Part shown: positions 4,266 to 37,945 of the stretch, piece after piece
Position numbering within the stretch: the stretch's first letter is position 1
Layout: every line of letters starts with the position of its first letter
NCBI GenBank assembly: GCA_013152485.1
Contig: JAADGG010000060.1
Span: forward strand, 4,542 to 68,541
Direction: 5' to 3'
Source: Nitrospirota bacterium
GTDB lineage: Bacteria; Nitrospirota; Thermodesulfovibrionia; Thermodesulfovibrionales; JdFR-85
Length of the DNA: 64,000 bases
The notes under the pieces: model-generated
The model's database searches: none
Told to the model about the DNA's origin: nothing
Seen by the model: the letters and a program-made list of their open reading frames with translations, nothing else
Position numbers and translations under genes: made by a program

Positions 4266-5042
4266 TCACCAGGCCGCATCTATCTGGAGAAGCGCGCGTG
4301 TGTCGAACTCCCTGTCGGACGTGACGGCGATCTGCGACCCCACACCGAGGAAGAGCTCCGGTTTAAGCTTGAACTTCAGGGCAGGCAGGAGGTAGATGAT
4401 CGTCTCATCCTTCGACAGCTCACCCTCCAGCTCGATTATAGGGAACAGGGAATCCGTGGCCTTGAACACACCGGAGACCCCGGTCTCCACCATCTTCATC
4501 TCGGGCATGTAATGAACATTACCGTCGAAGATCGCAAAGTCCTTGAAGACCTTGCGTGCCGCAACCCCGAAAGCACCGACGACATCGTCCTGCCCTTCGG
4601 GGATGGTTCCCGAAGGAACCAGGGCGCCTCCGAACACGGAGACCCCGCTTTCGGCTTCTGCATCCTGAACGACGGCGTACATCAACATCACGTCGGTACG
4701 CGGATTCTGATTGATCGCGTTGCTGCGTACGTGCAGGCCCACACGGTCGTAAAGACCCGCCTCGAGGTGAAACCCGTAATCACTCCTCGACTCTTCTCCG
4801 CTGTAGCCCTGCCTGTAACCGGTTATCCTCGTGGTCACCATTCCGGGACTGTCAGGGATACCCATGTGGTTGAAAAACGGGTGAGGAAATCCATGGGCCA
4901 TCTCCATGCCGTCTCCCATCTTCATGCCGTCCTCCGGCGGGGAATCGGCCCCGGCCTGGGCGTAAACACGGCCCACACCCAGGGCGAACACGAGCACCGT
5001 CAACACACACAACACAGACCAACCAAAGAACTTCCCGTTCAT
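4266..5042 (-). CDS. Hypothetical exported protein, outer-membrane beta-barrel-like, Met/His-rich N-terminal region
   Basis: 258-aa ORF behind SD GGAGGAGGTGAAGG. It has a signal peptide (VLVFALGVGRVYAQA) and a mature N-terminus DGMKMGDGMEMAHGFPHPFFNHMG. The body has an alternating beta-strand-like pattern and ends in ...LLQIDAAW (aromatic terminus typical of OMPs). The family is not recognised. Confidence 0.55.
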   Translation of the reverse strand: MNGKFFGWSVLCVLTVLVFALGVGRVYAQAGADSPPEDGMKMGDGMEMAHGFPHPFFNHMGIPDSPGMVTTRITGYRQGYSGEESRSDYGFHLEAGLYDRVGLHVRSNAINQNPRTDVMLMYAVVQDAEAESGVSVFGGALVPSGTIPEGQDDVVGAFGVAARKVFKDFAIFDGNVHYMPEMKMVETGVSGVFKATDSLFPIIELEGELSKDETIIYLLPALKFKLKPELFLGVGSQIAVTSDREFDTRALLQIDAAW

Positions 5043-5445
5043 CCTTCACCTCCTCCAGAACCCCGGGATCAACCGTCCTGCCAGCGGACGGCACATCAAG
5101 CAGGAACGGCCGCCTCTCAACAAGTATAGCAGCATTTACGGTCAAATGTTAACATGTGTCCCGGAAGAGGCGGCTGCCCGCTGTTCGGCTGAATGCCTCG
5201 AGTGCGGAATCGGTCTACAAGGTAAACCCCCGTCACCGCCAAAGTAACGTCTGCATCCGTCCTTATCAGGTTGATCTGCACGTAGTAGTAAAACTTGCCT
5301 GGATCCATCACATGATCGAGAGCCCTGCCTGCCGGGGAGAACGTCGGTGCCGGCATCCCGCATGAAGTACAGGTCATGCAAGGACAGCCCCATGCGGAAC
5401 ACCGGGCATACACACTTCCCTACGCGTGCTGCACTTAGCGGTGAA

Positions 5446-5775
5446 CTATTCCTCCTCCCCCACGGGTTCCTTTCCGCTTCTCACGGCAGCGTTCGTGGGG
5501 CTGAAGTAGTAGAGGAATATCGGCTTCTCGGTCCGAAGCATCTCCAGCGTGGCATGGAATTGAGACAGGTTGAAGTGCAGGAATATACGCCCTGAAGCTG
5601 AATGGAACACTGGAGGAGCCAGTGGTGTACCGTCGGGAAAGAAGTATACATATCCCCTGTAGGTATTCCCCTCGTAAAGGTATATGCCGGCAACCGCCGT
5701 GCCGGGACTCAGGTCGGTCGTCGGTCTGCTCGACCACAAACGTACAGCATACCCGTCAATCTTGAATTGTGCCAT
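5446..5775 (-). CDS. Small protein of unknown function (109 aa), paralogue of 34511-34822
   Basis: The track ORF (178 aa) is trimmed to the internal ATG at 5775, preceded by SD AGAGGGGGA. From MAQFKIDGY... it aligns end-to-end with the 103-aa protein at 34511-34822 (LRTEKPIFLYY / LRNEKPVYIYF; tails EPVGEEE / EPIGEGE). Confidence 0.6.
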   Translation of the reverse strand: MAQFKIDGYAVRLWSSRPTTDLSPGTAVAGIYLYEGNTYRGYVYFFPDGTPLAPPVFHSASGRIFLHFNLSQFHATLEMLRTEKPIFLYYFSPTNAAVRSGKEPVGEEE

Positions 5776-6033
5776 GATCGATCCCCCTCTTGGTTTGCCC
5801 GGTTTCTTGATTGTTTGCAGCTCCTCGTACTGGACTGAAAAAGACTGCGGCACCGATACACTCCCTCTCTTACACGATCCCCACCCCCTTTCCTGCCCTG
5901 ACACCGAGACAGCACAGCCTGCCGCGTCAAGGCATCCTGAGGAATCATAGAGAAAAGACCCGGCAACACCCTCCCTTTGCATGCCGGCAGACGAGAGTAA
6001 TGCAACTTTACCCCAACTATATCACATCCTGCG

Positions 6034-6891: not shown

Positions 6892-8971
6892 AGATGATCT
6901 CCCGCTGATCGAGGTCCACCCTGTCGACCCTCACCCTGATCTCATCGCCTATGGAGAACCTCTTCTTCTTCCGCCTCCCGACGAGCTGGAGGTTTCTCTC
7001 GTCATAGATGTAGTAGTCGTCGGTCAGGTAGGAGACGTGGAGAAAGCCGTCGACGTAGAAGTCCTTGAGCCTCACCTTTATGCCTCTCGGTGTGACGCCG
7101 ACTATCCGCGCATCAAGTTCCTCGCCGACCTTGGCCTTCATGAACCACGCGCGCATGGCAGCCACCACGGCCCTCTCTGCATCGTCGGCAAGCCTCTCCA
7201 TCCGAGAGCAATGGAAAGCTGTCCCCGGAAGGGTCTCTTCGAGCTCCCTGACCCTCTCCGGCCTCATCTTTCTTCTTCGGAGCACCTCCCTGAGTATCCT
7301 GTGGACGACGAGGTCCGAGTAGCGCCTTATGGGGGATGTGAAGTGGGTGTAACACTCGGAGGCAAGCCCGAAGTGCCCCACATTCTGGACGGAGTATCTG
7401 GCCTGTTTCAGGGAGCGAAGGACTATGTAGTTGACGACGTCCTCTTCAGGCCTTCCCCTGACCCTGTCGAGTATATACGGCAGGTCCTTGACCGTCAAGT
7501 TTCTCCTCCTGATATTGGTCACCGCCTTCACCACCTTCAGGATCTCCTCCATCTTGCTCTGGTCGGGAGGCTCGTGTATCCTGTAGATCGAAGGAACGCC
7601 CTTTGCATACAGGCTCTCTGCAACGGCCTCGTTTGCAGCGATCATGAATTCCTCTATGATCATGTGGGCGAAGTTACGCTCCGCCACCACGATGTCTTCG
7701 GGGTTGCCCCTAAGATCGAGCAGGACCTCGGGTTCGGGAAGGTCGAAATCGAGGCTTCCCCTCTTGAGACGTCTCTCCCTGAGGACGCCGCACAACTCGC
7801 CCATCAGTTCGAATTCCCTGAGGAGATAACCGTAGCGCTGCCTCAGCTTCCTGTCCCCGTCGACGAGGATCTGCTTCACCTGTGTATAGGTCATCCTTTC
7901 GTCGCTGCGTATGACGCTGGGATAGAACCTCTGCCTGATCCTCTCTCCTTCACGCGTAAAATCCATCTCCACTGTAAAGGCGAGCCTGGGCACCTTGGGC
8001 TTCAGGCTGCATATGTCCTCGGACAGTTTCTTCGGGAGCATGGGAACGACCCGGTCGGGAAGATAGACGCTCGTCGCCCTCCTCTTAGCCTCCCTGTCGA
8101 TGTTGCTGTCCCAGGGCACGTAATAACCGACATCGGCTATGTGGACATAGAGGGTATAGCCGAACTTTCTGAGCTTGATGGATATGGCGTCGTCAAAGTC
8201 CTTCGCCCTTTCGCCGTCTATGGTGACGGTGGGCAAGCCCTGGAGGTCCTTTCTCCTGTCAGGGCTGACGTCTTGGATCTCTCCGGTAAGGGCCCTGGCC
8301 TCCCTTGTGACGTCTGCAGGAAACTTTCTCGGCAGATTGAACTCATCTATTATGGACTCGACCTCCTCTGCAGGGACCTCGGGCTTTTTCAGCTTCTTTA
8401 TGACCTTGCCGGAGGGCGGCCGCTTGTCGGTCGGGTAGCTCAGGATCTCGACGACCACCATGTCGCCGTTTCGGGCGTTCTTTCTGTCTTTCGGTGCAAC
8501 ATATATGTCGAAGGGGATATCCCGCCTCTTGGGCCGCACAAAGGACACCCCCTTTGTTATCTCAATCGTTCCGACCAGCCTGGTCTGGGCGCGTTCGAGT
8601 ATCCTGAGTATCCTTCCATCCCTCTTCCTGGGGTTCTCTATCCTCACGATCACCCGGTCACCGGCCATTGCACCGAGCGTCGCCTTGGATGGCACAAACA
8701 CGTCCCGTTGTCCGGGGTCTTCGGGGATGACAAAACCGTAGCCATCCCTGTGCGCCTCAAAGTAACCCTTTACAAGGCTCATCTCCTCGGGCATTCCGTA
8801 TCTGCCCTGCCGGGTCATTATGAGTGCGCCGCTTCTGACCAGTCCCCGCAGGATCTTCTTGAGGTGACGCGCCTCTTTCGGTGTAAGCCCCATCTGGGAG
8901 ACGGTCTCCTTGAAGCTGAGGGGACGGCTGCACGTGCTGAAGAACTTAAGGACTCTCTCCTTGTTTATCAT
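6872..8971 (-). CDS. rnr: Ribonuclease R (3'-5' exoribonuclease, RNB family)
   Basis: 699-aa ORF with an N-terminal HTH/cold-shock-like region and a central RNB domain (DFDDAISI..., HFGLASECYTHFTSPIRRY). A C-terminal S1-like domain is present. Confidence 0.9.
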   Translation of the reverse strand: MINKERVLKFFSTCSRPLSFKETVSQMGLTPKEARHLKKILRGLVRSGALIMTRQGRYGMPEEMSLVKGYFEAHRDGYGFVIPEDPGQRDVFVPSKATLGAMAGDRVIVRIENPRKRDGRILRILERAQTRLVGTIEITKGVSFVRPKRRDIPFDIYVAPKDRKNARNGDMVVVEILSYPTDKRPPSGKVIKKLKKPEVPAEEVESIIDEFNLPRKFPADVTREARALTGEIQDVSPDRRKDLQGLPTVTIDGERAKDFDDAISIKLRKFGYTLYVHIADVGYYVPWDSNIDREAKRRATSVYLPDRVVPMLPKKLSEDICSLKPKVPRLAFTVEMDFTREGERIRQRFYPSVIRSDERMTYTQVKQILVDGDRKLRQRYGYLLREFELMGELCGVLRERRLKRGSLDFDLPEPEVLLDLRGNPEDIVVAERNFAHMIIEEFMIAANEAVAESLYAKGVPSIYRIHEPPDQSKMEEILKVVKAVTNIRRRNLTVKDLPYILDRVRGRPEEDVVNYIVLRSLKQARYSVQNVGHFGLASECYTHFTSPIRRYSDLVVHRILREVLRRRKMRPERVRELEETLPGTAFHCSRMERLADDAERAVVAAMRAWFMKAKVGEELDARIVGVTPRGIKVRLKDFYVDGFLHVSYLTDDYYIYDERNLQLVGRRKKKRFSIGDEIRVRVDRVDLDQREIIFGLPRA

Positions 8972-9020
8972 CTCCGAATCTCCCCCCGACCATCCATACT
9001 GCCCCTTCTTTCAACGGGCA

Positions 9021-9980: not shown

Positions 9981-10036
9981 AGCTCCTCCTTGATTGTAAA
10001 AGATTTTATCCTCATGCCAAGCAGGTGTTTTGCAAG

Positions 10037-10112
10037 GTGGAGCCGGGGGGGGGACTCGAACCCCTGACCTGCTGATTACGAATCAGCTGCTCTACCAGCT
10101 GAGCTACCCCGG
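10037..10112 (-). tRNA. tRNA-Thr (anticodon CGU), CCA encoded
   Basis: Hand-folded cloverleaf: acceptor GCCGGGG/CCCCGGC, D arm GCTC/GAGC, anticodon stem GCTGA/TCAGC, loop TTCGTAA, T loop TTCGAGT. The first T-stem pair is A.C, within a run of nine C. Confidence 0.85.
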
Positions 10113-10326
10113 CTGATCAAATACTGATTGGGCGATCAATGGTCATCTGGCGTAAAGAGACGGCTTCTCACTCTCCTCCCTCGCACCGCCTCAAAGACTC
10201 CGGAGGCCGGCACCCGAGAGAGAACCGCCCGGTTACCGGATATAATTATACACCAAACCGTCTCCATTTTGCCTCCTTAATGTTAAAATAGCATACAAGG
10301 TCGATCATGGCCGTACCAGAGTCAAC

Positions 10327-11085
10327 ATGATGCCGCGATGGAGAGAGAACATATACTTCACTCTGATAACCCCCCGAGAACCCGGCAATATAGGGGCTGC
10401 TGCGAGGGCCATCAAGAATACGGGGTTTTCTAACCTCGACCTGGTCAGTCCGCCTGACAATCACACGGAGGGACAGGACCTGTGGCTCGCATGTCACGCC
10501 ACTGACGTACTCAGGGAAGCGGCGGTCTACGATTCGGTCGACGAGGCGCTGAAGGACAAGGCCCTCGTGGTCGGCACATCGAGAAGGGTCGGTAAGAAGA
10601 GGGGGTTGTTCCTCAGCCTCAAGGAAGGGGTGAAAGAGGTGGTGAAGGCAGCGGGAAGAAACAGGGTCGCCATACTCTTCGGCAGGGAGGACCGGGGACT
10701 CACCAACGAGGAAGTGGAGCGGTGCGGTTTTCTAATGTACATACCGACGGCCGCAGATGCGCCATCACTGAACCTCGCCCAGGCGGTACTGCTCGTGGCC
10801 TACGAGCTTGCGTGCCAGAGACTCGAGACAGAAAGCCCGCGGCTTGTCCCTTACGGAGAGATGCAGCTGCTCTTTGAGCATATCCGGAAGACTCTGAGGC
10901 TCCTCGGCTACATCCCCAGGGGCGACCGGGACATGGAGGAGCGGATAATGCGCAACCTGAGACACCTGCTGGGACGCTCGGGACTCACACCGTGGGAGGC
11001 CGGAATGATCCACGGCATCTGCAGCCGGATAGAGAGGGTGATCACGGAAGGAGAGGCGATCAGGAGCAAATATCAGGGGAATTGA
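10327..11085 (+). CDS. trmJ: SpoU-family tRNA 2'-O-methyltransferase (TrmJ-like)
   Basis: 252-aa ORF. The N-terminal SpoU domain carries PREPGNIGAAARAIKNTGF, FGREDRGLTNEE and SLNLAQAVLLVAYE, followed by a C-terminal extension as in TrmJ. Confidence 0.7.
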   Translation: MMPRWRENIYFTLITPREPGNIGAAARAIKNTGFSNLDLVSPPDNHTEGQDLWLACHATDVLREAAVYDSVDEALKDKALVVGTSRRVGKKRGLFLSLKEGVKEVVKAAGRNRVAILFGREDRGLTNEEVERCGFLMYIPTAADAPSLNLAQAVLLVAYELACQRLETESPRLVPYGEMQLLFEHIRKTLRLLGYIPRGDRDMEERIMRNLRHLLGRSGLTPWEAGMIHGICSRIERVITEGEAIRSKYQGN

Positions 11086-11164
11086 TGTAAAATAGGACCG
11101 CCGGCCCGGACGGCGTCGGAACAGAACTCTCGATTGCTAAACAACAGCCAAGGAGGTATGCATC

Positions 11165-11662
11165 ATGTTGATCAGGGGCAGGACATGGAGGTTTGGAGCA
11201 GACATCGATACGGACGCCATCATACCTGCACGATATCTGAACACGTCGGATCCGCACGAGCTTGCAAAGCACGTCATGGAGGATGCAGACCCCGGTTTTC
11301 CCGGCAAGGTGAAGGCCGGAGACATAATCGTGGCGGACAAGAACTTCGGCTGCGGGTCGTCACGCGAGCATGCACCTATCGCAATAAAGGCCGCCGGCAT
11401 ACAGGCCGTTGTGGCGAAGAGCTTTGCTCGGATATTCTACCGTAATGCCTTCAACATAGGGCTTCCCATATTCGAGTCGGCCGAGGCATCAGAGAAGATA
11501 CGCGAGGGTGACGAGATAGAGATCGACGCAGACTCGGGGATCATAAGGAACCTCTCAAGGAATGAAGAGTATCATGCCAAACCCATCCCGCCGTTCATGC
11601 AGGAACTGATCGAGGCAGGAGGGTTGGTGGAGTGGACACGAAGAAAGATAAAGGCGGCATGA
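11165..11662 (+). CDS. leuD: 3-isopropylmalate dehydratase small subunit (short archaeal-type LeuD)
   Basis: 165-aa ORF behind SD AAGGAGG. Motifs: [45 protein letters not shown]. No large subunit is adjacent. Confidence 0.8.
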
Positions 11663-29280: not shown

Positions 29281-29356
29281 GCGGGCGTAGCTCAGCTGGT
29301 AGAGCACAACCTTGCCAAGGTTGGGGTCGCGGGTTCGAATCCCGTCGCCCGCTCCA
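29281..29356 (+). tRNA. tRNA-Gly (anticodon GCC), CCA encoded
   Basis: Hand fold: acceptor GCGGGCG/CGCCCGC, D arm GCTC/GAGC, anticodon stem CAACC/GGTTG, loop TTGCCAA, T arm GCGGG-TTCGAAT-CCCGT. Confidence 0.9.
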
Positions 29357-29419: not shown

Positions 29420-29495
29420 GGCGGCGTACCCAAGTGGCTAAGGGAGAGGTCTGCAAAACCTTTATGCGCCGGTTCGAATCCGGCCGCCGCCTCCA
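29420..29495 (+). tRNA. tRNA-Cys (anticodon GCA), CCA encoded
   Basis: Hand fold: acceptor GGCGGCG/CGCCGCC, anticodon stem GAGGT/ACCTT, loop CTGCAAA, T arm GCCGG-TTCGAAT-CCGGC. Confidence 0.85.
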
Positions 29496-29504
29496 ACACA
29501 ATGA

Positions 29505-29921
29505 TCACTCGCCTATGATCTTGACGAGCACCCTCTTTCTCCGCCTGCCGTCGAACTCACCGTAGAATATCTGCTCCCACGGGCCGAGGTCGAGTGCTCC
29601 GTCGGTCACGGCAACCACGACCTCCCTGCCCATTATCTGCCGCTTCATGTGGGCATCGGCATTGTCTTCACCGACATTGTGACGATACTGTGACACGGGC
29701 TCATGCGGAGCGAGCTTCTCGAGCCAGACGTCATAGTCGTGATGGAGTCCGGGCTCGTCGTCATTGATGAAGACAGAGGCCGTTATGTGCATGGCATTCA
29801 CCAGTACAAGCCCTTCCTTGATACCGCTCTCTCCTAAGCAGGCCACGACATCGGGGGTAATGTTTATGAAGGCCCTCCGGGTGGGCACTTCGAACCACAG
29901 CTCCTTGCGATAGCTCTTCAT
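29505..29921 (-). CDS. yjbQ: YjbQ/UPF0047-family protein
   Basis: 138-aa ORF behind AAGGAGGG. The sequence ([18 protein letters not shown]...NADAHMK...[16 protein letters not shown]) fits UPF0047. It is the last gene of the 33947->29505 operon. Confidence 0.8.
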
Positions 29922-29946
29922 ATGCCCTCCTTGTACTCGTCTGTTC

Positions 29947-31287
29947 TCACAGGCCGCCGAAAGTCTGCCAGTTGCATGCAGGACGGTCCCTCATGTAACC
30001 CTCCAGCCAGTCATATTGGGGGTGCTGCCGCAAAAAGGCCTTGGCGTCGAAAGGCATGCCGCAGGCGTGCCCCCAGCGGGCCTGAAAACTCATGTTTCCC
30101 GCCATGGTGGAATCGACGACCTTGCCGTCACCAGCCCCCCACGGATAATAAGGCCCCTGACCGGCATGACTGCCGTATCTTGCATCGTCGAGTTCGAGGT
30201 GTCCGCATATCGTCCGGCTGCAAGGATTATCCTGCTTCCGGAGATAGACGTCTCCGTGGTCTGCTATGATCTCCTTGGCCTGCTCGATATCGACGACCCG
30301 ACCTTCGAGCAGCTCCTTGAACCGCAGGCGGCGGGCACCGTTGTAACGGATGTCGGAATAGCTGTCGCCGCTGCACTCCTGGTTGCGGATCCTCAGGTCG
30401 GAAGCCACGTTGTAACCGCTGAAATAGCCGTCGTCCTTCTTTTCGTACCCGAGGTACCTCAAGCCCATCTCGATCCTCGCTATCTCTCCAGTTCTTATAT
30501 CACCTACGAGCCAGCTGCCGGCGTAACCACCGTTGTTGTTTCTCCACATCCTGTTCTTCCAGTCATCGATGCTCCTGGCATATTGAGATGCCTTGCGCGA
30601 GCGGTAAAACTCCGGCGCCCTGTTGTCGTCGAACCCTGAAAATCCGGAGATGGTGGTTTCGGCCACCACCAGTCCCGCCCCGGTTATCCACCAGTCTATG
30701 GTACTGGCGATATAGCCCGGAGGGGCCTGGAAGATCAGGCGATACCCCTCGGACGGCCGGACGTCCAGAATGATGTTGTAGTGATCCGAGGCTGCATATC
30801 TGTCCCAGCAGTTGTGGGCAAGCACGACGTTGCCGTCTGTGGTGGCTCCACCGGTGGCAATGAATGCACTGCAGCGGTGCGCATTCCTGAACCAGTGCGG
30901 CTGCGATCCGTTATACAGCGGCCACCAGGAACCGAGGAGATCCTGATATCCGTTCCAGGCCAGAATCTCCTCAAAGCTCGTCATGAAGCGGTTTGCACAG
31001 GCACCATCGGCGATGCCCTGAAGCTCCTGTGTGAATTCATCGTCGATATGCCGCGGAAAGAACTCGTTGGCTTTCTCGACGAAGAAGTCCCACTGCATCC
31101 CCGTATCCCATTCGGCAAGGAACCTGTTCACCCTTATGGCCTCTTTTATCTGGGAAGCCAGATGATAACCATGCTGAAAGCCGCGCTGGTAAGGTTCTCC
31201 CTCGATCCTCAGGTAGATCCAGCCGTCTCTTGCCTCGGGCTCTCCCCCTGTCAGGAGATCTCTGAATACAATACGGTTATCCGTCAT
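29947..31287 (-). CDS. Cys-nucleophile Ntn-hydrolase superfamily protein (peptidase C45 / phospholipase B-like)
   Basis: 446-aa ORF with no signal peptide. The N-terminal [11 protein letters not shown] resembles the C45 pro-region motif. [11 protein letters not shown]...VVLAHNCW...[29 protein letters not shown] parallels the CSALIK / LVAHNTW / SSYPG...GSGLV..ETTIG blocks of PLB-like proteins as I recall them. Confidence 0.65.
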
Positions 31288-31305
31288 GACATCTCCTGCT
31301 CTCCT

Positions 31306-33012
31306 TCAGCTTGCCAGCCTCCCATCGGCGATCTCCTCCAACTGTTTCACTCCGCGGCTCCAGGGAAGAAATCCGATATTGGAGGCCGTGGTATTGAACC
31401 TGATCTCGGAAACGTTGTTCCTGATTCCCTGCTCCTGGTAATACTGGTATGCCCTGCCGCCTACGGTATAGCACGGCGCATATCCTGGCTGGGACAGGAA
31501 CGTGAAACACTCACCATGCAGATACTCTTTACTTATCTGGGTCTTCATAGACGCCCAGTCCAGAAAGGCCGTATATGTCATCTTACCACCATTGACCTTT
31601 ACATCGCAGAGGGCCCTGACATACCGGATGATCCGCCATATGTATGTTTCGAATCCGGCTCCAAGTACGGCCTGTTCCTGTGCCTCGCGGGTATCACCGT
31701 AGAGTTCCAGATAGGCCTGCTGTACAGGATCGAGATTTCTTTTCCCCAGGAGATCTTGAGCTGCCTTCCAATACTGGTATTCACGGAAAAAGGCCATTCC
31801 CTCGGTCAACACCTCCAGGATCGGGGTAAACAGGTTCAGCAGCGGCGAACCCGCATGTTGAGCCGCCTTGACAAAGTTGAAACCATGCGACAACTCATGC
31901 ACTATGATATTGATCATGGTCAGCAGGGAGGCACTCTTGGAAGGGGTGAAATACAGGTTTGCCGAGGGATGATCCGTCAAATAATCAACCGCACGGTCCT
32001 CTCCGCCCGTCACCATCGATGCCAGGTACGAAGGCGTCTGCACCAGCGTCACATGGTCAGTGGAGTCGATACGTATGATATAGTCCGTGCCGAATGCATT
32101 GCTGACCGATACAACCTTCTCTGCAGCCGTTATCTCGTCTTTCACGGCATAGTATTCGCTTTGAGCCTTCCAGACCTCCTCTATCGAACTTCCCGCGGGT
32201 AACCCGAGCTTCTGCGCCATCTCCCCGGCGAGTGAAGACAAGACCGGCATTTCAGCATTCAGCAGGTCGGAGGCCATGTTTTCGATCTCTCCGGCTGTGA
32301 GACCGAGATTATACTGATCTTCCAGCAGGCCGGGATACCCCGGAGCAGGTTCCGGGGGCATCTCGTGTTCTGCAAACAGTTTCAGAAGTTCACCCGTATC
32401 CTTCGTATCGAGCCCTGGCTCATGGAAGACCTCTCTATAGGTGTTGATGCAGTCCACGACCTCATCACGTAGGACCGGCCGCTGCTTCCATCGTCCGTTC
32501 AGCGCCTCGAAACACCCCAGAAGGTACCCGGCTGCATCCAGGCATCCCCTCCTGGTCTCATAAGAGAAGTCCCTGCCCTGCCAGCGCGCGCTTTCGAAAC
32601 GCAGAAGTTCAATGACCCCGCACAGGTAGTCCTGCAGCCACTCGGGCTCGCCCTGTTCCTTTACAAGGATATAAAAAAAACCGTCTCCTGCTGCAGTGAC
32701 TCCTGCAGTCGGCCCCGTGTTCTCAAGGGAGCTCCGGAAGAGCGTCAGCAGACGATCGGCGCAAAACTGAAGGTCTTCAGAGGAAAACTTCCCTGAAATA
32801 TCCCTTCCGACCCTTTCAATGCCGGCATAAGCCGCCTGGAGATTCTCGGGCGTCTGAATAAAAAGCCCGGGAAGGCTGCTTCTGAATCCGGACGTATACC
32901 CCTTGACCGGAAACAGCTCCGCCCATAACTCGACGACTTCGTATGCAGCAGAATCCACTCTCCTCTCCTCCTGTCCAGCCCACCCGACGGCCCCCTTATG
33001 CCGGTCCGTCAT
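31306..33012 (-). CDS. DUF885-like HExxH metalloprotein (putative metallopeptidase)
   Basis: 568-aa ORF. HELSH is followed by EGMAFFRE, then WRIIRY..D...G.MT, QPGYAPCYTVGG and a C-terminal G.LPW. This is the DUF885 pattern as I recall it. Its ATG overlaps the upstream stop (ATGA at 33009-33012). Confidence 0.6.
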   Translation of the reverse strand: MTDRHKGAVGWAGQEERRVDSAAYEVVELWAELFPVKGYTSGFRSSLPGLFIQTPENLQAAYAGIERVGRDISGKFSSEDLQFCADRLLTLFRSSLENTGPTAGVTAAGDGFFYILVKEQGEPEWLQDYLCGVIELLRFESARWQGRDFSYETRRGCLDAAGYLLGCFEALNGRWKQRPVLRDEVVDCINTYREVFHEPGLDTKDTGELLKLFAEHEMPPEPAPGYPGLLEDQYNLGLTAGEIENMASDLLNAEMPVLSSLAGEMAQKLGLPAGSSIEEVWKAQSEYYAVKDEITAAEKVVSVSNAFGTDYIIRIDSTDHVTLVQTPSYLASMVTGGEDRAVDYLTDHPSANLYFTPSKSASLLTMINIIVHELSHGFNFVKAAQHAGSPLLNLFTPILEVLTEGMAFFREYQYWKAAQDLLGKRNLDPVQQAYLELYGDTREAQEQAVLGAGFETYIWRIIRYVRALCDVKVNGGKMTYTAFLDWASMKTQISKEYLHGECFTFLSQPGYAPCYTVGGRAYQYYQEQGIRNNVSEIRFNTTASNIGFLPWSRGVKQLEEIADGRLAS

Positions 33013-33947
33013 TCAGGTTTTGAGACTCCGCGTGCAGGGTCGGTTCCCTCCGGCCCCAGAAATCCCTGTTGATGCCTCGGGATCTCCGGCAGCGGGGATA
33101 AACCGAGGGCCTTTTCCCATTGGTCAATGCTCATGTACATCAAGTCGGAAGGCTGCCTGCCGGGAGGGATCGATCTCCTGGCGAGGGTGACGTAAGGTGC
33201 ACATGTCAGAGCGCAGCCCACATGATTCTCAGGCACATACAACAACCTGTAACCGGCAAACGTCTCTTTGTACCTTACTCCCTGATCTGCTCCGCAAAGC
33301 ACCACGCTATTGGTTATCTTTCTCAGCGTGCCGTCCAGAAAACCCGTCACTTCCTCATAATTCATGTCGGCAGGACAGGTGTTGGCGTCTTCAATGAAGA
33401 GATTTGCTCCGGAGGTCCGGTCGTCAAGTATGCTCAGAGCAATGGCCGACCAGACCCAGACCGGACCTTTCTTTGTTATGTCCTTGTTTGCGCAGATCAC
33501 ATGTGCTCCGGGCAAGGGATTGAAGCGCCTGTAAGCCTCCGTACCGAAGAGCCTCTGTGTTGCATCGAGCAGGGGATAGACGTTGTATACCGGGATGCTC
33601 GATCCATCCGGCAGGGGCTGGTTATAGAGAAGATTCCCCCGAAGGTTATCGGCTGACGCCAGGTCATACCCCCAGACGGCACCGTTGAGACCGCAGAAGG
33701 ATGAAGCCGTAAGCATGTTGATCTGACCGATGTAGGCATCGTTGGCCTCACAGCGGTCATAGGAGACTATCCCCTCTGTAACTTCATCGAGGTTTTCAAC
33801 CCTCACCATACCCACCGAGAGCTTGAGGGTGGAGATGTAACCGTTTCCAGAGGCTCCCGGATTCAGGTACCCCATGCAAAAATCGTCTTCACTCCCGACG
33901 GCTCCGTTTATCACCGCTGCGGGATCGTATGGATAGTTCGAGTTCAC
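33009..33947 (-). CDS. hdcA: Pyruvoyl-dependent histidine decarboxylase proenzyme homologue (HdcA family)
   Basis: 312-aa ORF with a GTG start behind AGAAGGAGGAA. Blocks GYLNPGASGNGYISTLKL, GIVSYDRCEANDAYIGQINMLTASSFCG, DGSSIPVYNVYPLLDA, PGAHVICANK, WSAIALS, LFIEDA and APYVTLARRSIPPG parallel Lactobacillus 30a HdcA as I recall it. This includes the Ser-Ser self-cleavage site (Ser82-Ser83 here). Confidence 0.8.
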   Translation of the reverse strand: MNSNYPYDPAAVINGAVGSEDDFCMGYLNPGASGNGYISTLKLSVGMVRVENLDEVTEGIVSYDRCEANDAYIGQINMLTASSFCGLNGAVWGYDLASADNLRGNLLYNQPLPDGSSIPVYNVYPLLDATQRLFGTEAYRRFNPLPGAHVICANKDITKKGPVWVWSAIALSILDDRTSGANLFIEDANTCPADMNYEEVTGFLDGTLRKITNSVVLCGADQGVRYKETFAGYRLLYVPENHVGCALTCAPYVTLARRSIPPGRQPSDLMYMSIDQWEKALGLSPLPEIPRHQQGFLGPEGTDPARGVSKPE

Positions 33948-34510
33948 AGTTCCTCCTTCTCTGTCTTACGGTTTCTTATTCAGCCTGAATAAATAATAGT
34001 AGAACAGGTTGCCGCCATCGCACATCTTCACCGTGCCGGACAGTTTCAGGAACAGGTGGCATCCCACGTCGTCCAGCATTTGGCATCAGCACTCCCGCGG
34101 TTGCAACTGTCCATACAAGGCCGTGCAGTTTGAAATGCAGCCGACATCCTGCCTGCCGCCGGGCAGGACAGAGATCTCCCTTTCCTCAAAATTCGGGGCC
34201 TGATGCACTGACAGCAACCTTGAACATCCCTGAAAGGTTGGGAGCCCGGGGGATCTTCCCGGGACTGTCCGAATCGATGATTCCAGACCGGTCGCCGTCG
34301 GTCTGCCCGGTCCTTACCTGACTGCCATGTGACATAACGAGCAGTCTCATGTTGCGGCGACACATGAGCCCATGTGCACCCTCGCCCGGTTCCAGTTCGT
34401 TCTCCACCGTCTCTCGATTGACCGTAACCCGACCAGACTACCTTGACCCAGGATTCAGACCCCCTCTCTGCAGCCCCGGACGTCCATTGCGGACCGTGCA
34501 CCGTTCCCGT

Positions 34511-34822
34511 CTATGTTTCACCTTCGCCTATCGGCTCGGAGCTGGTTCCCAGGAACGCCCTGCCGGCAGTAAAGTAGATATAGACGGGTTTCTCGTTCCT
34601 CAGCACATCGATTACGTTCTCGAACATTGCGGAAGGCAAATGCATCATGATTATTCCGCCGCTCTCATAGTCGTCCTCAAAGAACTGTCCCGGATCATTG
34701 AACCTGATCCAGGCCACAACCTTTCCGTTCGTGTCCTTCAACTGAATCTGGGCACGGTTGGTCTGGTACCCGGAAGGACTGCCGTAGAACAGAACACTGT
34801 AGCTGCCGATTGTGTGTGCCAT
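34511..34822 (-). CDS. Small protein of unknown function (103 aa), paralogue of 5446-5775
   Basis: The track ORF is trimmed to the ATG at 34822 behind the perfect SD AAAGGAGGAG. It aligns with the 109-aa protein at 5446-5775 (see there). Confidence 0.6.
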   Translation of the reverse strand: MAHTIGSYSVLFYGSPSGYQTNRAQIQLKDTNGKVVAWIRFNDPGQFFEDDYESGGIIMMHLPSAMFENVIDVLRNEKPVYIYFTAGRAFLGTSSEPIGEGET

Positions 34823-36451: not shown

Positions 36452-37945
36452 TCAGCTTCTTCCCTCTGTCTTGTGACGTCCGGTCTTCCACGGCCTTGAA
36501 GCAATGATGAATGCGGCTATGAGTGTCAAGAGTATCCAGTCCCTGCCGATCAGGATGAGGGAAGTCCAGGAGTATCCACCGTAGGGCTTCCTGAGTTCGC
36601 TGTAGAGGTCTCCGACGAGAATTATACCGAGCACAAGCGGCACGAAGTACTTGATTATGATATCCCACCAGAAGCCGAGCTTTATGGTGGAGATCCTGTT
36701 GACATGCTGCCTCAGGACCTTTATCCTGAAGAACCATCCAACCAGTATGCATTCGAATATGCCAACGACGACCAGTCCGTAGTGGGTCAGAAAGTGGTCC
36801 ACTATGTCGAGCCACAGGAGCCCCGCCTGGGTGGTAAACATGACCGAGCCGCAGAATCCCATGATGGAGACAACGGTTATCAGGCGCTTCCGACTGATCC
36901 CGAACTTGTCGACCATTGCAGACGTGAACGCCTCGACGATGGATATGGAGGACGACAGGCCGGCGACCACGAGGCACAGGAAGAAGATGGCCCCGAATAT
37001 GTTGCCTCCCGGCATGAGGCTGACCGCCTTTGGGTATGCAACAAAGGCGAGTCCTATGCTTTGAGAGACGACGGCCGAGAGTGGCTCGCCCTGCGAGGCG
37101 GACATGAATCCGAGCACGGAGAAGACGGCGAATCCGGCGAACAGGGAGTATCCGCTGTTGATAAAGGCCGTCAGCAACGCCCCTTTCGTTATGTTCGCCT
37201 TCTCCGGGAGATAGCTCGCATAGGCTATCATGATCCCGAACCCGAGGCTCAGGGTGAAAAATATCTGGCTGTAGGCATCTATCCACACCTTCGGATCCGA
37301 GAGCCTGGAGAAGTCCGGGGTCAGATACGCTCGGACGCCTGACATCGCTCCCTCGAGCGTCAGGGACCAGAAGACGAGCACGGTGGTCAGGACGAAGAGG
37401 AGGGGCATGAATATCTTGTTGGCAAGCTCGATCCCACGCTGCACGCCCCTGTGAACGATGTACCAGTTTATGAACCAGATTACGAGGAGCGCAAAAAATA
37501 TGGGGGTCCTTATCTGTCCTATCTCTGCCGGAGAGTCACTGACCGCCAGGAACTTCTCGAAGAAGAAAGTGTTGGGGTCGCTACCCCAGCCGAGGTTGAA
37601 GGACAGGAGGAAGAAGTTGAGACACCATGCAACGATCACCATGTAGTAGAGCACTATGCCGAACATCACAAAAGTCACGGCCCACCACCCGAGCCACTCC
37701 CAGTTCTTCCTGATCTTGGCATAGGCGAGCGGGGCAGACCCGATACGCTCGTGACCGACGGCAAACTCGAGTATCAACAACGGTATCCCCGCGGTCAGAA
37801 GGGCGGTGAAGTAGGGAATGAGGAAGGCTCCACCTCCATAATTGTATGCCATATAGCTGAAGCGCCAGATGTTACCGAGCCCGATAGCGGAACCCACGGC
37901 AGCAAGCAAGAAACCGATCTGACTCTTCCACTGCTCCCTCTTCAT
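36452..37945 (-). CDS. Neurotransmitter:sodium symporter (NSS/SNF) family transporter
   Basis: 497-aa ORF with the N-terminal signature GFLLAAVGSAIGLGNIWRFSYMAYNYGGGAFLIPY and ~11-12 TM segments. It has an ATGA overlap with the aroK stop. Confidence 0.85.
   Translation of the reverse strand: MKREQWKSQIGFLLAAVGSAIGLGNIWRFSYMAYNYGGGAFLIPYFTALLTAGIPLLILEFAVGHERIGSAPLAYAKIRKNWEWLGWWAVTFVMFGIVLYYMVIVAWCLNFFLLSFNLGWGSDPNTFFFEKFLAVSDSPAEIGQIRTPIFFALLVIWFINWYIVHRGVQRGIELANKIFMPLLFVLTTVLVFWSLTLEGAMSGVRAYLTPDFSRLSDPKVWIDAYSQIFFTLSLGFGIMIAYASYLPEKANITKGALLTAFINSGYSLFAGFAVFSVLGFMSASQGEPLSAVVSQSIGLAFVAYPKAVSLMPGGNIFGAIFFLCLVVAGLSSSISIVEAFTSAMVDKFGISRKRLITVVSIMGFCGSVMFTTQAGLLWLDIVDHFLTHYGLVVVGIFECILVGWFFRIKVLRQHVNRISTIKLGFWWDIIIKYFVPLVLGIILVGDLYSELRKPYGGYSWTSLILIGRDWILLTLIAAFIIASRPWKTGRHKTEGRS

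Follow-up and report, generated by a model that had tools for sequence, protein, structure and literature searches.

A three-gene cassette of a pyruvoyl decarboxylase, an HExxH protein and a second hydrolase in a Nitrospirota genome and its relatives in other phyla

Classical hdcA loci, known from Firmicutes, Bacteroidota and others, carry the gene for pyruvoyl-type histidine decarboxylase together with an antiporter gene of the hdcP, aaxC or gadC type, sometimes accompanied by hdcB, hisRS or aaxB (PMC8465708). The window analysed here, a 64,000 nt stretch of a Nitrospirota contig, encodes an enzyme of the same family, with the same cleavage site and active-site residues and 71–72% identity to antiporter-linked enzymes, but there is no antiporter gene beside it and hdcA is followed by two hydrolase genes. 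A tblastn search with an hdcA-linked permease found no His/histamine antiporter in the 64-kb window, bearing out the first-pass annotation, which had described the usual partner as absent, and the cassette is therefore not a classical His/histamine exchange system. Unlike the classical loci, it also has no visible second decarboxylase or HdcB-like gene; judging from the ORFs, the window has no gene of HdcB size within the cassette or next to it. Surveys that require an adjacent antiporter, e.g., PMC8465708, would miss this arrangement, and a literature search found no published description of the gene combination, in agreement with the earlier view that it is undescribed.

Four minus-strand ORFs are packed between 29505 and 33947, and both their coordinates and their junctions agree with the first description of the locus. 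The features are as follows.

34511..34822, minus strand: 103-aa ORF (ATG 34822, stop at 34511), no family match
33009..33947, minus strand: hdcA, pyruvoyl-type histidine decarboxylase proenzyme, 312 aa, GTG start (profile, PDB alignment)
31306..33012, minus strand: putative DUF885-like HExxH zinc metallopeptidase, 568-aa ORF from ATG 33012 (fold, motif)
29947..31287, minus strand: predicted C45/phospholipase-B-like Cys-Ntn hydrolase proenzyme, 446 aa (profiles, fold)
29505..29921, minus strand: yjbQ (UPF0047), 138 aa (PF01894, TIGR00149)
29420-29495, plus strand: tRNA-Cys(GCA) (ARAGORN and Rfam)
29281-29356, plus strand: tRNA-Gly(GCC) (ARAGORN and Rfam)

Read directly, the junctions show AGAAGGAGGAACT upstream of the hdcA GTG, an ATGA at 33009-33012 where the hdcA stop meets the ATG of the HExxH ORF, an 18-nt gap with AGGAGAGCAGGAG between the HExxH and C45 genes, and a 25-nt gap with AAGGAGGG between the C45 gene and yjbQ. 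Promoter-like and terminator-like sites within the four-gene block showed no excess over shuffled sequence. The PADLOC anti-phage defence models gave 0 matches at E <= 0.01 to the seven proteins compared.

The decarboxylase and the two hydrolases

The HdcA call is well founded, with a PF02329 score of 264.5 bits (cut-off 25); the equivalog model TIGR00541 gives 253.6 bits, under its 346.65 cut-off, and the NCBI rule would not name the protein automatically as an equivalog. It aligns with both the alpha and beta chains of Lactobacillus 30a HDC in the PDB, and its motif TAS82-S83F aligns with the point at which the beta chain ends (...TAS) and the alpha chain starts. Across 36 homologues S82 never varies and S83 is at least 90% conserved, and Ser82-Ser83 is the predicted serinolysis site and source of the pyruvoyl group. 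Residues I60, Y63, D64, S82, S83, K155, F184 and E186 reproduce the full Lactobacillus 30a active-site set and are kept in 21/21 HExxH-linked homologues. Six of these correspond to I59, Y62, D63, K155, F195 and E197, the substrate-binding and catalytic residues of the Lactobacillus enzyme. The window protein is 100% identical to one Nitrospirota MAG protein. Its nearest relatives (L023-25, 71–72% identity) have genes for amino-acid permeases and for a large decarboxylase of the Orn/Lys/Arg type as neighbours. This is the classical acid-resistance arrangement, as in the hdcA/antiporter/aaxB clusters already published (PMC8465708). Judged by its sequence, HdcA is a canonical histidine decarboxylase, and the substrate is most likely histidine, given the antiporter setting of its nearest relatives and the retention of all active-site residues.

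The assignment of the second protein to DUF885, made in the first-pass annotation, holds at the level of fold but falls below threshold in Pfam, where PF05960 scores 19.5 bits against a 32.4 cut-off, over the C-terminal 65 residues only (members of the family score 17-37 bits). The AF2 model (pLDDT 90.2) has the DUF885 structures 3o0y, 3u24 and 3iuk as its top Foldseek matches (E 3e-11 to 5e-8, TM 0.62-0.67), followed by ACE (M2) and M32 carboxypeptidases (TM 0.29-0.41, E ~3e-3). Like those DUF885 structures, the model is an all-helical, two-lobed gluzincin with an HExxH motif and a downstream Glu; the solved proteins are described as putative lipoproteins, whereas the window protein has no obvious signal peptide by eye. 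The predicted zinc site consists of H372-E373-x-x-H376 and E404, and all four residues (HExxH...TEG) are invariant in 30 homologues at ~45% identity. The invariant zinc ligands and the fold, matching DUF885 and then ACE/M32, make the protein look like a peptidase. Its family profile retrieved 161 representatives among 1.84 billion and did not merge with the bulk of DUF885, so that it belongs to a small separate family. A literature search found no published function for DUF885 and no biochemistry of the HExxH family or of bacterial PLB-like C45 proteins.

The start of the HExxH gene is probably GTG 32958 and not the overlapping ATG 33012. In a sister locus that is 91% identical (L105), the equivalent ATG runs into a stop after four codons and the gene begins at a downstream ATG behind GGAGGAG; in the window, the GTG at 32958 is preceded by GGAGGAGAGGAGA. 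Homologues are ~551 aa long, and the model shows disorder over residues 1-17. With this start, the product would be 550 aa and the intergenic gap 50 nt, so that hdcA and the HExxH gene remain operon-like, and the translational coupling through ATGA that had been proposed becomes doubtful.

The third gene was correctly placed among C45/PLB-like proteins, with scores above threshold for both NF040521 (132.4 bits, cut-off 85) and PF04916 (Phospholipase_B; 57.4 bits, cut-off 27). Cys139 is invariant in 25 homologues, aligns with the PLBD2 Cys, and opens strand 140-146 of the model; it is the predicted nucleophile of a proenzyme, exposed by self-cleavage. The AF2 model (pLDDT 91.8) is closest to PLBD2 (TM 0.72) and isopenicillin-N acyltransferase (TM 0.64-0.82). 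The alpha-beta-beta-alpha Ntn fold is shared with the Penicillium acyl-CoA:isopenicillin-N acyltransferase and lysosomal PLBD1/PLBD2, but identity to any characterised C45/PLB member is only 15-21%. Bacterial homologues are mostly stand-alone genes (those at 54-58% identity lie in unrelated contexts), and linkage to HdcA occurs only in some lineages.

Recurrence of the cassette across genomes

The HExxH protein was used to find 29 loci, 27 of them informative for the decarboxylase and some phylogenetically related, from Nitrospirota, Alpha-, Beta- and Gammaproteobacteria, Desulfobacteraceae, Chlorobi, Bacteroidota, several Actinomycetota, Acidobacteriota and one Thermoplasmatota archaeon. An adjacent pyruvoyl decarboxylase gene on the same strand was present in 23/27 informative loci (85%; loci partly related), 16 of the HdcA type and 7 PsiD-like, and a second hydrolase gene adjoined in 26/29 loci (22 S10, 3 C45 and 1 C69), with intergenic gaps mostly <350 bp. 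The exact HdcA-HExxH-C45 trio recurs in three loci (L022, L105 and L112), and the same three genes occur in other orders in L026 and in Streptomyces (L020). What is conserved is thus a unit of three genes, in which the HExxH gene is joined by genes for a pyruvoyl amino-acid decarboxylase and for a second hydrolase, rather than the tRNA-flanked block of four first proposed; the window has the less common variant, with C45. Conservation of the combination extends well past this genome, and since the same order is found in many unrelated genomes it is not a chance juxtaposition.

These data bear on an alternative reading, that hdcA is here an ordinary gene for histamine formation under acid stress, with its antiporter encoded at another place in the genome and with peptidase neighbours that are functionally unlinked housekeeping genes. 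Such a reading would suit a canonical HdcA with antiporter-linked nearest relatives, the occurrence of C45 homologues alone elsewhere, and the presence in the window of an SNF-family transporter gene 2.5 kb upstream. It is nevertheless highly improbable: the SNF gene is missing from the sister locus L105, the three-gene arrangement recurs in >10 phyla with unrelated flanks, two of its members are joined in fusion proteins, and the HExxH family, although tiny, is decarboxylase-adjacent in most informative loci.

The composition of the slots varies. In the HExxH tree the different partner types are mixed among one another, and in the HdcA tree the HExxH-linked enzymes form a polyphyletic set (both NJ, no support values), which indicates that the slots are interchangeable. 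The PsiD-like protein of sister cassettes consists of PF12588+PF02666, and among solved proteins it is most closely related to a PsiD-like tryptophan decarboxylase (E 6e-28), while classical PSD scores far lower; this PSD-family type of pyruvoyl enzyme, to which the PsiD-type L-tryptophan decarboxylases belong, is not present in the window. The decarboxylase slot thus accepts a second, unrelated pyruvoyl fold. No PLP-dependent decarboxylase occupied it in any of the 27 informative loci.

The restriction to pyruvoyl enzymes of two unrelated folds (HdcA-type and PsiD/PSD-type) would be expected if the HExxH protein and its partner hydrolase were a maturation, activation or turnover factor of pyruvoyl proenzymes, comparable to HdcB, PrdH or PanZ, and no classical HdcB partner was identified among the genes seen beside the cassette HdcA. 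Accessory maturases are an established theme for pyruvoyl enzymes (PMC11229817), and HdcB is cited in PMC8465708. This role is improbable, as HExxH-S10 pairs without any decarboxylase within 10 kb occur in 4 HExxH loci, and the fusion proteins (P0126, 979 aa; P0213, 860 aa) join HExxH to S10 and not to the decarboxylase. HdcA relatives at 71–72% identity function in loci that lack the HExxH gene. It would also be heavy machinery to employ an M32/ACE-like enzyme of 550 aa together with a complete carboxypeptidase for one normally autocatalytic cleavage. The fusions argue that the two hydrolases work together.

The C45 protein of the window occupies the slot usually held by an S10 carboxypeptidase, so that the pairing of two self-cleaving proenzymes, earlier singled out as odd, is not a general property of the cassette. 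The S10 partners are similar to cathepsin A and carboxypeptidase Y, with the catalytic GESxAG motif visible in sequence, and C45 and C69 have the Ntn fold in common. Genes for C69 dipeptidases are also found near HdcA in gut antiporter loci, in keeping with a wider pattern in which peptidases supply decarboxylases.

All three families of this slot use a covalent acyl-enzyme, and the cassette might accordingly be biosynthetic: the decarboxylase would make an amine, in the window histamine, the acyl-enzyme hydrolase (S10, C45 or C69) would transfer an acyl or peptidyl group to it by aminolysis, and the HExxH protein would prepare or trim the donor, giving an N-acyl- or peptidyl-amine. Carboxypeptidase Y catalyses transpeptidation, some plant S10-like proteins are acyltransferases, and the C45 model matches acyl-CoA:isopenicillin-N acyltransferase, as noted above. 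The missing amine exporter would also be accounted for, and GNAT acetyltransferase genes adjoin the cassette in Roseibium (L005, L021) and lie near it in L102. In L104, the cassette is directly followed by LanC, a gene for a Cys/Ser-rich 64-aa peptide, and LanB, but this lanthipeptide neighbour is a single case. No donor-making gene (ligase, CoA-ligase or carrier protein) is conserved beside the cassette, small precursor ORFs show no conservation between lineages, and the S10 partners retain not only the catalytic serine motif but presumably also the residues with which carboxypeptidase Y binds the C-terminal carboxylate (by eye). A biosynthetic function is on balance unlikely.

A possible peptide-to-amine route

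The earlier proposal that histidine is released and then decarboxylated is still the best reading, and we hold it tentatively, at somewhat less than even confidence. It takes as its basis the observed gene order, the family and fold assignments, the conservation of catalytic residues and the conserved neighbourhood, from which we infer substrates, reaction order and role. Two exopeptidases would free histidine from cytoplasmic peptides or amides, and HdcA would then decarboxylate it. The cassette comprises a pyruvoyl decarboxylase, a putative zinc peptidase whose fold distantly resembles M32 and ACE, and a covalent acyl-enzyme hydrolase, shuffled repeatedly in evolution, with C45 in the third position here, S10 in most cases and C69 in one. 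The HExxH enzyme, as a carboxypeptidase or peptidyl-dipeptidase, and the second hydrolase, as a terminal carboxypeptidase, dipeptidase or amidase, may act serially on short peptides or amide conjugates, starting at the C-terminus, and together release L-histidine. HdcA, self-cleaved at Ser82-Ser83, would convert this to histamine and CO2 with the consumption of one proton, and the PsiD-like enzyme of sister cassettes probably decarboxylates a different, perhaps aromatic, amino acid in like manner. Physiologically, the route could serve to produce an amine or to consume protons. It is presumably cytoplasmic, because no obvious signal peptide was seen on the cassette proteins when N-termini were inspected by eye. 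If the route is correct, peptide-bound histidine would be converted to histamine in a previously undescribed way.

Several observations count against it. A cytoplasmic path from peptide to amine has no obvious need of dedicated peptidases, and an amine exporter is missing from the cassette; an APC-family antiporter adjoined it in 0/29 HExxH loci. Substrate supply leaves unexplained why the slot is pyruvoyl-only, though PLP decarboxylases are much commoner. The HExxH loci without a decarboxylase and the stand-alone C45 homologues weigh in the same direction, as does the rarity of the HExxH gene among HdcA loci: it is present in only 5/80 HdcA-anchored metagenome loci, so most HdcA genes do not need it.

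Flanking genes

The identification of YjbQ is secure (PF01894, 126.2 bits, cut-off 27; TIGR00149, 111.4 bits, cut-off 67.75), and yjbQ is probably co-transcribed with the cassette here. Its position after the C45 gene is confined to the window and its close relatives L001 and L105, and it was not found in L112, L020, L026 or any S10-type cassette; it is a lineage-specific passenger outside the cassette. The tRNA-Gly/tRNA-Cys pair, on the plus strand and convergent with the operon, marks its distal boundary, with a gap of 9 nt (not 10, as previously given) between tRNA-Cys and the yjbQ stop. Outside the window the pair was seen in no loci but L001 and L105, which are syntenic relatives, and the tRNAs also lie outside the cassette. 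The same applies to the 103-aa ORF, which lies 563 nt upstream of hdcA and is preceded by a good Shine-Dalgarno sequence (AAAGGAGGAG). It has no homologue across the fetched loci, L105 included, where a different ORF of 131 aa takes its place.

Gene layout and translation starts

In this window from a Nitrospirota MAG, four minus-strand ORFs lie exactly where the first-pass annotation had placed them, with a small ORF upstream and a tRNA pair at the distal end.

Features of the locus (window positions)
29505-29921, minus strand: yjbQ, 138 aa, passes both curated thresholds
29947-31287, minus strand: C45 gene, 446 aa, matches NF040521 and PF04916
31306-33012, minus strand: HExxH gene, 568-aa ORF, DUF885-like by fold
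33009-33947, minus strand: hdcA, 312 aa, GTG start, matches PF02329
ATG at 34822, minus strand: 103-aa ORF with a good Shine-Dalgarno sequence, ending 563 nt upstream of hdcA
Next to the yjbQ stop, plus strand: tRNA-Gly and tRNA-Cys, both found in the window

The junctions were read directly. The hdcA GTG is preceded by AGAAGGAGGAACT, the HExxH and C45 genes are separated by 18 nt containing AGGAGAGCAGGAG, and the C45 and yjbQ genes by 25 nt containing AAGGAGGG. The sequence ATGA is present at the hdcA/HExxH junction (33009-33012), as described, but it is probably not the HExxH start. In the sister locus L105 (91% identical), the frame opened by the ATG that overlaps the HdcA stop closes after four codons, and the HExxH gene opens at a downstream ATG behind GGAGGAG. 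The window has a GTG (32958) at this position, behind GGAGGAGAGGAGA. Since HExxH homologues are about 551 aa long and residues 1-17 are disordered in the structure model, the window product is probably 550 aa, with a gap of about 50 nt to hdcA. Coupling by overlap is doubtful, although the gene block is still operon-like. Promoter- and terminator-like sites within it showed no excess over shuffled sequence.

The distance between the tRNA genes and the yjbQ stop is 9 nt rather than the 10 nt first reported and, being on the plus strand, the tRNAs are convergent with the operon. Among the loci compared, yjbQ follows the C45 gene only in the window and its close syntenic relatives L001 and L105, and the tRNA pair is likewise limited to syntenic close relatives, so that neither can be retained as part of the unit. 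The tRNA pair was also rejected as an integration signature, given this restricted distribution and convergent orientation. The GC content of the region is not anomalous. A riboswitch or leader in the 563-nt gap 5′ of hdcA was rejected, as Rfam at E ≤ 1 returned the two tRNAs and sub-threshold noise. The 103-aa ORF matched no family and has no homologue in any locus compared, including L105. A weak paralogue (28% identity over 130 aa, tblastn E 3e-7) occurs at 5449-5808 on the minus strand of the window, and it too matched no known family.

Identity of the encoded proteins

The assignment of HdcA as a pyruvoyl enzyme is well founded. It scores 264 bits against PF02329, and 253.6 bits against the equivalog model TIGR00541, under the cut-off of 346.65. 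It aligns to both chains of the Lactobacillus 30a histidine decarboxylase, with a beta chain ending in TAS and an alpha chain opening at the next Ser. Residues I60, Y63, D64, S82, S83, K155, F184 and E186 match active-site residues of that enzyme in the alignment. All eight are kept in 21 of 21 HExxH-linked HdcA homologues. The window protein is predicted to be a standard histidine decarboxylase recruited into the cassette rather than a paralogue that has taken on a new function. Eighteen HdcA-like proteins from human-gut metagenome contigs (L082-L101), 53% identical to the window HdcA, carry K in place of both Y63 and the catalytic E186 (active-site pattern IKDSSRFK). Their genes adjoin a NUDIX-like gene and an ABC transporter, not an antiporter, and the proteins may lack histidine decarboxylase activity altogether.

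The HExxH protein had been assigned to DUF885. This is borne out by fold but not by Pfam score, which is sub-threshold (19.5 bits, cut-off 32.4). The best matches of its structure model (pLDDT 90.2) are three solved DUF885 structures (E 3e-11 to 5e-8, TM about 0.65), and ACE and M32 carboxypeptidases are more distant fold matches. A profile search of the PDB with the family gave nothing meaningful, the fold search alone providing the link to solved structures. Residues H372, E373, H376 and E404 are invariant across 30 homologues of about 45% identity. The family profile found only 161 representatives among 1.84 billion, and members score 17-37 bits on PF05960; together with the fold match, these results mark it out as a small family of its own that borders on DUF885. 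Plasmid carriage of the cassette was rejected, as a tblastn search of PLSDB with the HExxH protein had no hits.

The third protein is a C45/phospholipase-B-like Cys-Ntn hydrolase, as proposed, matching NF040521 (132 bits) and PF04916 (57 bits). Its Cys139 is invariant and aligns to the PLBD2 nucleophile. The best matches of its model (pLDDT 91.8) are PLBD2 (TM 0.72) and isopenicillin-N acyltransferase, with a C69 dipeptidase among the more distant Ntn folds. Homologues of 54-58% identity in Paraburkholderia and Bacteroidota stand alone in unrelated contexts. The YjbQ assignment is likewise secure, both curated thresholds being passed. Three unusual fusions were seen among the homologues: FmdE N-terminal to an HExxH-family protein (P0361, 736 aa), HdcA with a jacalin-like lectin (PF01419; P0052, 439 aa), and PvlArgDC with HDC (P0059).

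Composition and distribution of the cassette

The HExxH-anchored survey, annotated by local tblastn, clustering and Pfam, covered 29 loci besides the window: 21 from a scan of a genome collection and eight metagenome contigs selected mostly on length, two of which were picked also for their subclade. Many of the metagenome contigs are short. HdcA fills the decarboxylase slot at 16 loci and a PSD-family protein (PF12588 plus PF02666) at seven; four loci have no decarboxylase within the flank, and two are uninformative, the contig beginning inside the HExxH gene. A pyruvoyl decarboxylase is adjacent on the same strand at 23 of the 27 informative loci, counts that do not represent independent events, some of the loci being closely related. 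The best solved relative of the PSD-family protein is a PsiD-like L-tryptophan decarboxylase, not a classical PSD. No PLP-dependent decarboxylase was seen at the 27 informative loci. Candidates at loci lacking HdcA were rejected: a 464-aa Labrenzia neighbour is a MocR-type GntR/aminotransferase regulator, and the others are pyruvate kinase or unknown proteins. The second-hydrolase slot holds an S10 serine carboxypeptidase resembling cathepsin A and CPY (PF00450, up to 351 bits) at 22 loci, C45 at three and C69 at one, and is empty at three. Two proteins (P0126, P0213) are HExxH-S10 fusions.

The gene combination is not confined to the window's genome. Carriers include Nitrospirota, Alpha-, Beta- and Gammaproteobacteria, Desulfobacteraceae, Chlorobi, Bacteroidota, several Actinomycetota, Acidobacteriota and a Thermoplasmatota archaeon. 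The exact HdcA-HExxH-C45 trio recurs in L022, L105 and L112, and the three genes occur in other orders in L026 and the Streptomyces locus L020. Flanks vary between loci, and transposases adjoin the cassette in two. The cassette neighbourhood is strongly non-random; that it is an unlinked housekeeping neighbourhood is very improbable. In L020 (Streptomyces sp. NPDC012835, order C45-HdcA-HExxH), the alignment of the HExxH gene (10001-11613) is split into two overlapping parts that lie in different frames, which suggests a frameshift, whether from a pseudogene or a sequencing error.

Viewed from the HdcA side, the HExxH gene is present in five and C45 in four of 80 HdcA-anchored metagenome loci. 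Most of the other loci are classical, the gut contigs carrying amino-acid permeases, a PvlArgDC-type second decarboxylase and C69 dipeptidases, in agreement with published hdcA/antiporter/aaxB clusters (PMC8465708). Soil contigs have other neighbours. The closest HdcA relatives outside the window's clade (L023-25, 71-72% identity) have permeases and a large Orn/Lys/Arg-type decarboxylase on their flanks. In neighbour-joining trees (no support values), HExxH-linked HdcAs fall in several clades mixed with unlinked ones, and the partner types of the HExxH proteins (HdcA or PsiD-like; S10, C45 or C69) are interspersed, indicating that the cassette slots were refilled repeatedly. One soil contig (L060) has two HdcA-like genes (4283-5146 and 8157-8984) on opposite strands, with 3 kb and a Ser/Thr protein kinase gene between them; in about 16 soil loci a kinase gene of this family converges on HdcA.

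Possible functions and significance

The cassette may convert peptides or amides to histamine via free histidine, a reading to which we give slightly less than an even chance. The HExxH enzyme and second hydrolase would work one after the other, releasing histidine from cytoplasmic peptides or amide conjugates, and self-processed HdcA would convert this histidine to histamine and CO2. No obvious signal peptides were seen when the N-termini of the cassette proteins were read by eye. The fold relatives of the HExxH enzyme are carboxypeptidases and a peptidyl-dipeptidase, and S10 (carboxypeptidase), C69 (dipeptidase family) and C45 (amidase/acyltransferase family) would all suit the terminal step. 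Dipeptidases close to HdcA in antiporter loci may follow the same logic. The peptide-to-histamine reading leaves unexplained the missing exporter and the exclusive use of pyruvoyl decarboxylases of two unrelated folds. This pyruvoyl-only slot would be explained if the HExxH family were dedicated to partnering pyruvoyl enzymes in general, which it could be, and so regular a pattern might reflect a genuine mechanistic connection; that the HExxH protein is a maturation or turnover factor for the proenzymes is improbable. About 2.5 kb upstream of the window cassette, beyond cobD, is an SNF-family sodium:neurotransmitter-type symporter (36452-37945, minus strand; PF00209, 388 bits) that could carry an amino acid or amine; its gene is missing from the syntenic sister locus L105.

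Alternatively, though we consider this unlikely, the cassette might be biosynthetic rather than catabolic and yield amine-capped peptides or N-acyl amines as small molecules of a new class. The decarboxylase would provide the biogenic amine, which would be histamine or, in PsiD-type cassettes, an aromatic amine, and S10, C45 or C69 would join it to an acyl or peptidyl group readied by the DUF885-like zinc enzyme. All three hydrolase types form acyl-enzymes, the C45 fold resembles an acyltransferase, GNAT genes occur nearby in three loci, and one cassette lies directly beside genes for LanC, a peptide and LanB. However, no flanking ORF of 25-140 aa is conserved across lineages, the homologue-less 103-aa ORF included, and a RiPP-like precursor was rejected. 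The GNAT genes (Acetyltransf_3 or Acetyltransf_1) are directly 5′ of the cassette in Roseibium (L005, L021) and close by in the actinobacterial L102, and could indicate N-acetylation of the amine. In L104 (9837-16281), an HDC-HExxH-S10 cassette is followed immediately by a LanC-like gene, a 64-aa ORF ending ...VMCGCCGSLPSSDGPGPTC and a 1125-aa LanB-type dehydratase; this trio looks like a class I lanthipeptide cluster, a single case with transposase genes upstream. A role in anti-phage defence was rejected, none of seven cassette proteins having a PADLOC match.

Full-text literature searches returned nothing relevant on the gene combination, in line with the first-pass annotation, nor on the function of DUF885 or bacterial C45/PLB proteins. 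The most systematic survey of hdcA clusters took in antiporter-linked loci only (PMC8465708). Whereas classical loci have an antiporter beside hdcA, this amino-acid decarboxylase locus has peptidases in its place and centres on an uncharacterised family of zinc peptidases. Pyruvoyl histidine decarboxylase is widespread outside antiporter-based acid resistance (Nitrospirota, Chlorobi, marine Alphaproteobacteria, Actinomycetota and an archaeon), so surveys that require an antiporter undercount potential histamine producers. For the first time, three groups of little-understood enzymes are thereby placed in a functional context: the discrete family of DUF885-like zinc peptidases, the cytoplasmic S10 carboxypeptidases of bacteria and their PLB-like C45 hydrolases. 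Cultured carriers of the cassette include Roseibium sp. AS2, Labrenzia alba CECT 7551, Pedobacter nototheniae and Nocardioides vastitatis. In Chlorobi and one actinobacterial locus (L009:8763-9101, L011, L027, L102/L103), a cold-shock-domain gene lies convergent just 3′ of the cassette, and the actinobacterial copy adjoins an RbpA-like gene.
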